DNA of 8,563 bases, from IMG/VR virus record IMGVR_UViG_2529293043_000020; one strand, 5' to 3'. The position numbers were made by a program, and so were the translations under genes. Below the pieces are notes generated by a model. It was not told the DNA's origin and searched no databases. It worked only from the letters and a program-made list of their open reading frames with translations. Shown here in pieces: positions 3,568 through 4,090 of this stretch (position 1 is its first letter; every line of letters starts with the position of its first letter). This stretch comes from a virus. Taxonomy: Duplodnaviria; Heunggongvirae; Uroviricota; Caudoviricetes.

Positions 3568-3854
3568 CACCACACTTATCTGCCCTGACTCTCTTTTGCG
3601 GGCTTTTTATTACAGGAAAGACACCGGACAGTGAAATGTTAAATGCCTCACAATTCAGGCAGTTGACTGTTGCCTGACATGCTGAGCGTTTGTTAAAAAA
3701 ATCCTGCATGATGAATCCCCCTGAGCGGCGGGGCATAATGACAGATGTTTGGTTGCGTATTGTATAGGCAAGTTGCGGATTCTGTCTGGTCATTGCAGAA
3801 TTCACCGGGAGGCACCCGGCATCATGCTGTATACAGAGATTAGGCATATATCCA

Positions 3855-3879
3855 GGCTTCTCATCGCAGGAGCCTTTTT
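3855..3879 (+). terminator. Intrinsic terminator-like hairpin (+ strand)
   Basis: GGCTTC-tcatcgca-GGAGCC (6 bp with one G-U pair) followed by TTTTT at 3875-3879. Confidence 0.4.
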
Positions 3880-3885
3880 ACATGC

Positions 3886-3911
3886 AAAAAAAAGCCCGAG
3901 TGGGTTCGGGC
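3886..3911 (-). terminator. Intrinsic terminator-like hairpin oriented for the - strand
   Basis: GCCCGA-gtgggt-TCGGGC hairpin preceded on the + strand by eight A residues (3886-3893), so a U8 tract follows the hairpin on the - strand. Confidence 0.4.
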
Positions 3912-3971
3912 AACAGCATGAGATACTTGCATTGTCATTTTTATCGTGTGGATTTTAACCAGGGTTTATAA

Positions 3972-3996
3972 GGCTGCGCAACTGCGCGGCCTTTTT
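3972..3996 (+). terminator. Intrinsic terminator upstream of the esterase gene
   Basis: GGCTGCGC-aact-GCGCGGCC (8 bp, GC-rich, one G-U pair) followed by TTTTT at 3992-3996. Confidence 0.55.
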
Positions 3997-4090
3997 CGTT
4001 TTGCGGGCTGCGGTTCTCCTCTTTTGATTCTCCTTGTGGCCGGACCGTGGCCCGCAACTGTTGAGGAAAATCCCGGAAAGGGGAGGAATA

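Follow-up and report, generated by a model that had tools for sequence, protein, structure and literature searches.

Phages that convert their hosts to Shiga toxin (Stx) production carry stxAB between a tRNA-Arg gene and the sialate esterase gene nanS-p, as in 933W and Sakai prophage Sp5, and the question raised by the locus described here is what stands at that position in a phage with the same gene order and no toxin genes. The locus lies in IMG/VR virus record IMGVR_UViG_2529293043_000020 (Caudoviricetes), analyzed as a single stretch of 8,563 nt that we refer to as the window. Its interval 3568-4090 extends exactly from the end of tRNA-Arg(UCU) (3567) to the nanS-p ATG (4091), 523 bp, as a first-pass annotation had measured it, and that annotation had read the interval as an empty, terminator-rich toxin slot. 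Many E. coli O157:H7 chromosomes match window positions 3300-4300 at 100% identity; in strain Sakai the match falls within the annotated feature "prophage Sp9; lambda-like phage", and the Sp9 late region is 100% identical to the window. We conclude with high confidence that what fills the interval is the small-RNA module standard in lambdoid (Stx-type) late regions, in this case that of Sp9.

Two convergent small RNA genes occupy the interval

The description of the interval as empty did not survive a search against Rfam, which recognized two small RNA (sRNA) genes on opposite strands (Table 1). On the + strand, the match to the STnc100 family scored 175.2 bits (E = 1e-40; gathering score 47) and covered model positions 1-206 of 206. 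EcOnc28, the + strand Hfq peak of Sp9 obtained by UV crosslinking and analysis of cDNA (CRAC) and listed in Table S2 of Tree et al. (2014; PMC4104026), falls at ~3780-3830 of the window once the coordinate offset between genome versions is taken into account, and thus lies inside the STnc100 match. On the - strand, the AgvB model RF02702 matched 3946-3887 at 56.6 bits (gathering score 56), while the related model AsxR, RF02703, reached 46.8 bits, short of its gathering score of 63, and the window contains no stx. The EcOnc03 sequence printed in the supplement of Tree et al. (2014) matches window positions 3940-3890 (-) exactly. At this Sp9 locus Hfq binding has been published, and EcOnc03 was detected as species of 56, 54 and 51 nt on northern blots, had its 5′ ends mapped by rapid amplification of cDNA ends (RACE) and was destabilized in a Δhfq background (PMC4104026).

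The three hairpins noted by the first-pass annotation were recovered where it had put them (+ 3854-3875, - 3911-3894 and + 3970-3993, hereafter hairpins 1, 2 and 3), and a T-run follows each of them on the strand in question. Our terminator scan, which required a G+C-rich stem-loop and then a U-run on the transcribed strand, found 3 terminator-like sites in 3568-4090 compared with 0.9 ± 1.1 in shuffled sequences. These hairpins do not characterize an empty slot. Two of them terminate the convergent genes: hairpin 1 ends STnc100/EcOnc28 with a U-run to 3882, and hairpin 2 ends EcOnc03 with a U-run to 3887. The arrangement is therefore a ~200-nt STnc100 RNA transcribed rightward and a ~51-56-nt EcOnc03 transcribed leftward, with terminators back to back at 3854-3911. 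Fold energies were -10.6 kcal/mol for hairpin 1 and -18.8 kcal/mol for hairpin 3 on the + strand, and -13.9 kcal/mol for hairpin 2, which was folded only within its own 61-nt - strand RNA.

In EcOnc03, a ~42-nt 3′ domain (GUAUCUCAUGC..GCCCGAACCCACUCGGGCUUUU) and the Rho-independent terminator are conserved and common to its anti-sRNA paralogs, among which AgvB blocks GcvB and AsxR destabilizes FnrS (PMC4104026). Upstream of the gene, 34 distinct relatives show almost no variation in the block GGATTTTAACC...AAGGCTGCGCAACTGCGCGGCCTTTTTC, while the adjoining 5′ domain of the anti-sRNA varies. Judged from its sequence and this conservation, the stretch at 3947-3985, whose - strand reads TTGCGC, 18 nt, TAAAAT and then ~6 nt up to the EcOnc03 5′ end, probably holds the EcOnc03 promoter. 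The EcOnc03 allele was also seen downstream of stx1B in Shigella phage 75/02 and beside stx1 in some Stx1 phages.

933W, H-19B, Sp10 and Shigella phage 75/02 have STnc100 homologs at the corresponding position, and two further papers report this position for STnc100/EcOnc27/sRNA103 (PMC12711010; PMC12370729). Overexpression of the Sp5/933W homolog was reported to raise fimZ and espA transcripts (work cited in PMC12711010), and a pairing of STnc100-family RNA with stxB has been proposed as hypothetical (PMC12370729).

The cargo insertion point is about 25 nt long

Alignment to 933W and Sakai Sp5 mapped homology breakpoints at 3608 and 3648. On the left, 3608 was the breakpoint in every comparison with a tRNA flank (933W, Sp5, an Stx2a phage and Sp10), with window positions 3250-3608 aligning at ~80% to pT-ileZ-argN-argO and the post-argO terminator of 933W, Sp5 and the Stx2a phage. 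On the right, the Stx2 phages resumed homology 46 bp after the stx2B stop (window 3648-4198, ~76%), the Stx1 phages H-19B, H30 and Shigella phage 75/02 resumed it from 3634, 40 bp after the stx1B stop, and the breakpoint against Sp10 was 3688. With homology ending at 3608 and resuming at 3634 (Stx1) or 3648 (Stx2), the stx cassette corresponds to the point 3608-3634, which is ~25 nt long in Sp9 and not 523 bp. The remaining ~457 of the 523 bp (3634-4090) are a conserved module that also lies between stxB and nanS-p in both Stx1 and Stx2 phages, and the notion of a 523-bp slot has to be given up.

Unrelated cargos, or none, are found at this one point between conserved flanks, as expected of a moron site (Juhala, 2000; Tree et al., 2014): stx2 in Sp5, stx1 in 75/02 and H-19B, a TciA/TerB-like gene in Sp10, a TerB-like gene with extra open reading frames (ORFs), or nothing. 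The commonest non-toxin cargo was the TciA/TerB-like gene (~167 aa), sometimes with ~600 bp extra upstream.

We then weighed the possibility, put forward in the first-pass annotation, that Sp9 derives from an Stx phage that cleanly lost stxAB and kept an empty, terminator-rich slot. Gene order is that of Stx2 phages, with homologous sequence on both sides of the stx position. Sp9 is also a mosaic, in which 3796-3955 and 4076 onward (to 5947) are 92-100% identical to H-19B/Stx1a phages and 3636-3795 only 42-72%; these near-identical segments indicate that exchange between Sp9 and Stx phages has happened. The toxin itself has left no trace that we could recover. Among tblastn matches of Stx1A/B and Stx2A/B to the window the lowest E was 0.14, and none in the interval was notable; blastn with the whole stx1 and stx2 cassettes returned noise only, and neither Stx coding nor promoter remnants were found, in agreement with the first-pass annotation and with its description of a toxin-less relative. 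Local alignment of the 25-nt spacer to the stx flanks scored no better than shuffles; the only match to stand out, AAATGTTAAAT against the stx1B-downstream flank (p = 0.003), is the start of the shared right module. An apparent remnant of the stx2A start, in which MAFFT had placed AGGAAAGACACC..GTGAAATGT of the spacer opposite the stx2A ribosome-binding site and initial codons, gave a shuffle p of ~0.36 and was dropped. The motif "TATCTGCG" (then CC or TT), which follows directly on the argO terminator in cargo-bearing relatives, is absent from Sp9.

The distribution of the unoccupied site bears on the same question. We collected at least 120 IMG/VR loci with the conserved anti-sRNA terminator, a redundant sample in which frequencies are rough, and scored occupancy from the distance to the nearest upstream tRNA-Arg together with an Stx search. 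Among the loci listed, 75 have an upstream tRNA-Arg; 31 of these 75 have no room for cargo, with at least five different junction lengths, while a TerB-like gene is present in 20, Stx2 in 14, a TerB-like gene plus extra ORFs in seven and other cargo in three. Several of the unoccupied types run from the terminator T-run directly into the STnc100 module, and wherever the Sp9-type left flank occurred in the sample, it adjoined the Sp9-type unoccupied junction. In complete E. coli genomes, the Sp9-type junction (3560-3700) was present in 485 of 5,426, at up to 4 copies per genome, including O157:H7, O111 and O145 strains. The unoccupied cargo site is thus a common, ordinary allele. At least five kinds of unoccupied junction, some with the terminator abutting STnc100, fit alleles that recombine better than they fit one deletion, and we infer that recombination between conserved flanks would be sufficient to swap occupied and unoccupied alleles. 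With no scar at the junction, we consider a clean loss of stxAB improbable, and even if it had taken place, most of the interval would still be an sRNA module and not a vacated slot.

Hairpins downstream of the sRNA genes and the late-operon terminators

Hairpin 3 is the strongest terminator of the interval and showed a strand bias in folding (-18.8 kcal/mol on the + strand versus -14.8 on the - strand). Across 18 distinct relatives its stem pairs were retained in 99.4% of alignment cells, with a single cell unpaired; one U·G pair is fixed, and the one-sided changes, except one, convert GC to GU. Because of this fixed U·G pair and the one-sided GC-to-GU changes, hairpin 3 is assigned to the + strand as an RNA element. 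It overlaps the likely EcOnc03 promoter of the opposite strand within window positions 3947-4003. Immediately downstream, the nanS-p leader contains a long hairpin that was paired in ~99% of cells, with 2 compensatory pairs (RNAalifold and pair counts, 18 distinct relatives); almost every one-sided change is a G-U wobble, fitting the + strand, and 4004-4054 matched no Rfam family.

Terminators recur along the whole late region. From the predicted terminator at 1743-1765, a short transcript starting at PR′ is expected, comparable to lambda 6S RNA or StxS. The post-argO terminator, homologous to the feature annotated in 933W as "terminator upstream of the stx genes", has decayed in Sp9 (-6.0 kcal/mol versus -14.8 in 933W), so that transcripts of the tRNA operon may run on into the STnc100 gene. 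The hairpin between nanS-p and the holin gene had no Rfam match and no Hfq site in Table S2 of Tree et al. (2014); sRNAs of the PasA/PasC type have been reported at the nanS-p/holin position in prophages of enteropathogenic E. coli (EPEC).

The + strand terminators form a series that begins after Q and extends to the holin gene, with at least five terminator-like sites between the Q gene and nanS-p, and lambda-type Q antitermination is the established route through such a series. In Stx2a strains, mitomycin C induction raised nanS-p expression by 1-2.4 logs, as measured by quantitative PCR (PMC10462455). The proposal of the first-pass annotation that nanS-p is reached by Q-dependent read-through is on these grounds plausible, by extension, for Sp9 itself.

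It could be argued from this series that the hairpins serve only as transcriptional insulators of the late operon, all three having the form of intrinsic terminators, and that the Rfam matches are non-functional relics. We regard this as very improbable: the published Hfq crosslinking, northern blots and RACE for EcOnc03 come from the same locus (PMC4104026), the Hfq peak lies within an STnc100 structure match that is full length, and hairpin 2, being on the - strand, cannot insulate an operon transcribed rightward. ORFs of 51-116 aa exist mechanically (a 116-aa ORF at 3497-3847 (-), a 69-aa ORF at 3749-3958 (+) and others). That the interval encodes small proteins nevertheless deserves hardly any credence: Pfam searches with five ORFs of the interval gave no hit at E ≤ 0.1, in line with the first-pass annotation, none is annotated in RefSeq, the 116-aa ORF overlaps tRNA-Arg and all overlap structured sRNA genes.

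Points that weigh against the sRNA-module reading

Several results count against the sRNA-module reading or limit it. The AgvB covariance-model score is barely over threshold (56.6 versus 56). EcOnc28 rests on an Hfq CRAC peak, with a northern blot for the Sp5 homolog EcOnc27 (235 and 247 nt; PMC4104026) and none for the Sp9 copy, and the 5′ end of the STnc100-family RNA is uncertain within ~3650-3710, with two candidate promoters. One has an extended -10-like element, TGTTAAAT, at 3637-3644 and would give a ~235-nt RNA; the other, CTGACA-N17-AAAAAT at 3674-3702, would give a ~177-nt RNA; both implied sizes fit published northern sizes of homologs (EcOnc27, EcOnc06). Covariation in hairpin 3 and the leader hairpin is modest and comes from closely related sequences, and the terminators are predictions, as is read-through by Q in Sp9.

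The duplex of EcOnc03 (5′ 24 nt) with GcvB is a further such point: at -11.5 kcal/mol, it was equalled or beaten by 61% of shuffles, whereas the AgvB control duplex with GcvB reached -19.9 kcal/mol and was equalled or beaten by 2.7%. The GcvB R1 target mimic CACAACA is also absent from the EcOnc03 5′ domain, CGAUAAAAAUGACAAUGCAAG. A role for EcOnc03 as an anti-GcvB RNA accordingly gained no support, the motif being absent and the pairing no better than shuffles; for the same reasons EcOnc03 is a paralog and not an AgvB in the functional sense. In the corresponding test with FnrS (5′ 24 nt versus shuffles), the AsxR positive control itself did not stand out. No later paper on EcOnc03 was found in the literature searched.

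Gene order of the Sp9 late region

The gene order proposed by the first-pass annotation (Q, methyltransferase, tRNAs, gap, nanS-p, holin, lysozyme, ant) was borne out by annotation and Pfam (Table 1), and the order shared with Stx phages, Q, ileZ-argN-argO, [cargo], STnc100 plus anti-sRNA, nanS-p, S, R, ant, is also that of Sp9. Two of the three tRNAs claimed are intact (CAU and Arg-UCU). The middle one is a pseudogene of argN, in which a 12-nt deletion relative to 933W and one Stx2a phage removes the anticodon arm; neither ARAGORN nor Rfam, even at E ≤ 1, called a tRNA at 3412-3478. Compared with Stx-phage late regions, Sp9 differs in this pseudogene and in having a methylase gene after Q. 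The position between Q/PR′ and the tRNAs that holds the methylase gene is empty in 933W, Sp5 and Sp10, which suggests that the late operon has a second place for cargo there. The nanS-p gene is 96-97% identical in nucleotide sequence to its Stx1a-phage homolog.

Table 1. Features of the Sp9 late region in the window, in map order.
Feature	Position	Strand	Basis or remark
DUF968 protein, then RusA	upstream of Q		annotation, Pfam
Antiterminator Q, DUF1133/Phage_antitermQ	1104-1646	+	annotation, Pfam
Strong terminator, GCCACCGGAAGGTGG then T7	1743-1765	+	100 nt downstream of Q gene, tR′ position
Small ORF ECs_1779	1888-2085	+	
Terminator	2072-2097	+	after small ORF 1888-2085
N6/N4 DNA methylase gene	2236-3294	+	annotation, Pfam
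ileZ3, CAU-anticodon tRNA (annotated tRNA-Ile in Sakai)	3335-3410	+	ARAGORN; Rfam tRNA, 70.9 bits; RefSeq
argN pseudo-tRNA	3412-3478	+	933W argN homolog with 12-nt deletion
argO3, tRNA-Arg(UCU)	3491-3567	+	ARAGORN, Rfam, annotation
Post-argO terminator, weakened copy	3582-3608	+	homolog of 933W "terminator upstream of the stx genes"
Cargo insertion point, unoccupied, ATTACAGGAAAGACACCGGACAGTG	3609-3633		25 nt, between left and right homology breakpoints
STnc100-family sRNA gene	3677-3885	+	Rfam RF02076; covers published Hfq-binding site EcOnc28
EcOnc03, short Hfq-dependent sRNA, AgvB/AsxR "anti-sRNA" class	3887-3946	-	Rfam; published sequence
Likely EcOnc03 promoter	3947-3985	-	-10 TAAAAT 3957-3952, -35-like TTGCGC 3981-3976, 18-nt spacer
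Third intrinsic terminator (hairpin 3)	3971-4003	+	predicted; 3971-3979 pairs with 3984-3992, U-rich tail
Long hairpin in nanS-p leader	4004-4054	+	predicted; 4004-4016 pairs with 4042-4054, variable loop
nanS-p-type sialate O-acetylesterase, ECs_1781	4091-5944	+	Pfam DUF1737, SASA, DUF6645; annotation
12-bp terminator-like hairpin	6027-6062	+	between nanS-p stop (5944) and holin gene
P21-type holin, DUF1327 protein, lysozyme, P22-type antirepressor (ant)	downstream of nanS-p, in this order		annotation, Pfam

Comparison with known systems

The convergent sRNA module of Sp9 is already known and was described by Tree et al. (2014, Mol Cell; PMC4104026), who counted Sp9 among lambdoid prophages whose "moron insertion site", downstream of PR′, contains convergent sRNA genes. 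EcOnc03/EcOnc28 of Sakai Sp9 in that study are the same locus with identical sequence; it assigned no EcOnc03 target and gave no northern blot of EcOnc28. A close counterpart is AsxR (EcOnc02) with EcOnc27/sRNA103/STnc100 downstream of stx2B in Sp5 and 933W, which has the same convergent arrangement upstream of nanS-p. In 933W, Rfam placed the STnc100 start 75 nt after stx2B, with AsxR antisense immediately after STnc100. The Sp9 module differs from that of Sp5 and 933W in having no upstream stx, in the 5′ domain of the anti-sRNA and in the STnc100 body (~76-80% identical), while AsxR and EcOnc03 have the ~42-nt 3′ domain and terminator in common.

AgvB1 and AgvB2 (EcOnc01a/b) of Sp10 and Sp17, which are anti-GcvB RNAs, resemble EcOnc03 at the level of family match, in the 3′ domain and in a position adjoining STnc100 upstream of nanS-p; unlike them, EcOnc03 has no CACAACA mimic, and the cargo site of Sp10 holds the TciA/TerB-like gene. 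By Rfam, the STnc100 and anti-sRNA pair follows stx2B in 933W, stx1B in 75/02 and the TciA/TerB-like gene in Sp10. The PasD/STnc100 prophage sRNAs of EPEC and enterohemorrhagic E. coli include an STnc100-like sRNA upstream of a sialate esterase gene, near Q, tRNAs and holin-lysozyme genes, and were concluded to be of lambdoid or Stx-phage origin (Zhu, Shabalina and Storz, 2026, bioRxiv, 10.64898/2026.05.13.724894); the Sp9 copy scores as STnc100 proper.

The lambda-type late operon, with PR′, qut, tR′ and morons downstream, has its likeness in Sp9, where Q is followed by the strong terminator at 1743-1765 and by more terminators before the lysis genes. In contrast to lambda, Sp9 has a Q of the DUF1133/Phage_antitermQ type and a methylase gene between the predicted PR′ and the tRNAs.

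A model of the module and its significance

In the lysogen, both sRNAs would be made from their own promoters and bound by Hfq. By analogy with AgvB and AsxR, the variable 5′ domain of EcOnc03 probably binds and neutralizes a host sRNA. The + strand terminators would prevent transcription of the sRNA and tRNA genes, and leaky late transcription, from entering nanS-p and the lysis genes, and hairpin 3 may act as a back-up terminator, ahead of nanS-p, for transcripts that escape the STnc100 terminator. After induction, RNA polymerase that starts at PR′ and is modified by Q would read through the + strand terminators. Cargo (stx1, stx2 or a TerB-like gene) enters at a single point, bounded by the post-argO terminator on one side and the STnc100 module on the other.

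Two features of this locus would be undescribed: that EcOnc03 neutralizes a host sRNA other than GcvB or FnrS, and that hairpin 3 with the overlapping promoter, together with the leader hairpin (3971-4054), forms a cis-regulatory unit that ties transcription of the anti-sRNA to gated expression of nanS-p and the lysis genes. We offer the two jointly as a tentative and somewhat doubtful proposal.

For annotation, the locus illustrates that where a reading by ORFs sees an "empty" intergenic gap in a lambdoid late region, conserved genes for regulatory RNAs are present, and the terminators of such sRNA genes should not be taken as scars of lost cargo. STnc100 and an anti-sRNA with a swappable 5′ domain are retained with or without toxin; the sRNA module is therefore part of the phage backbone beside a cargo hotspot, and not an accessory of the toxin.

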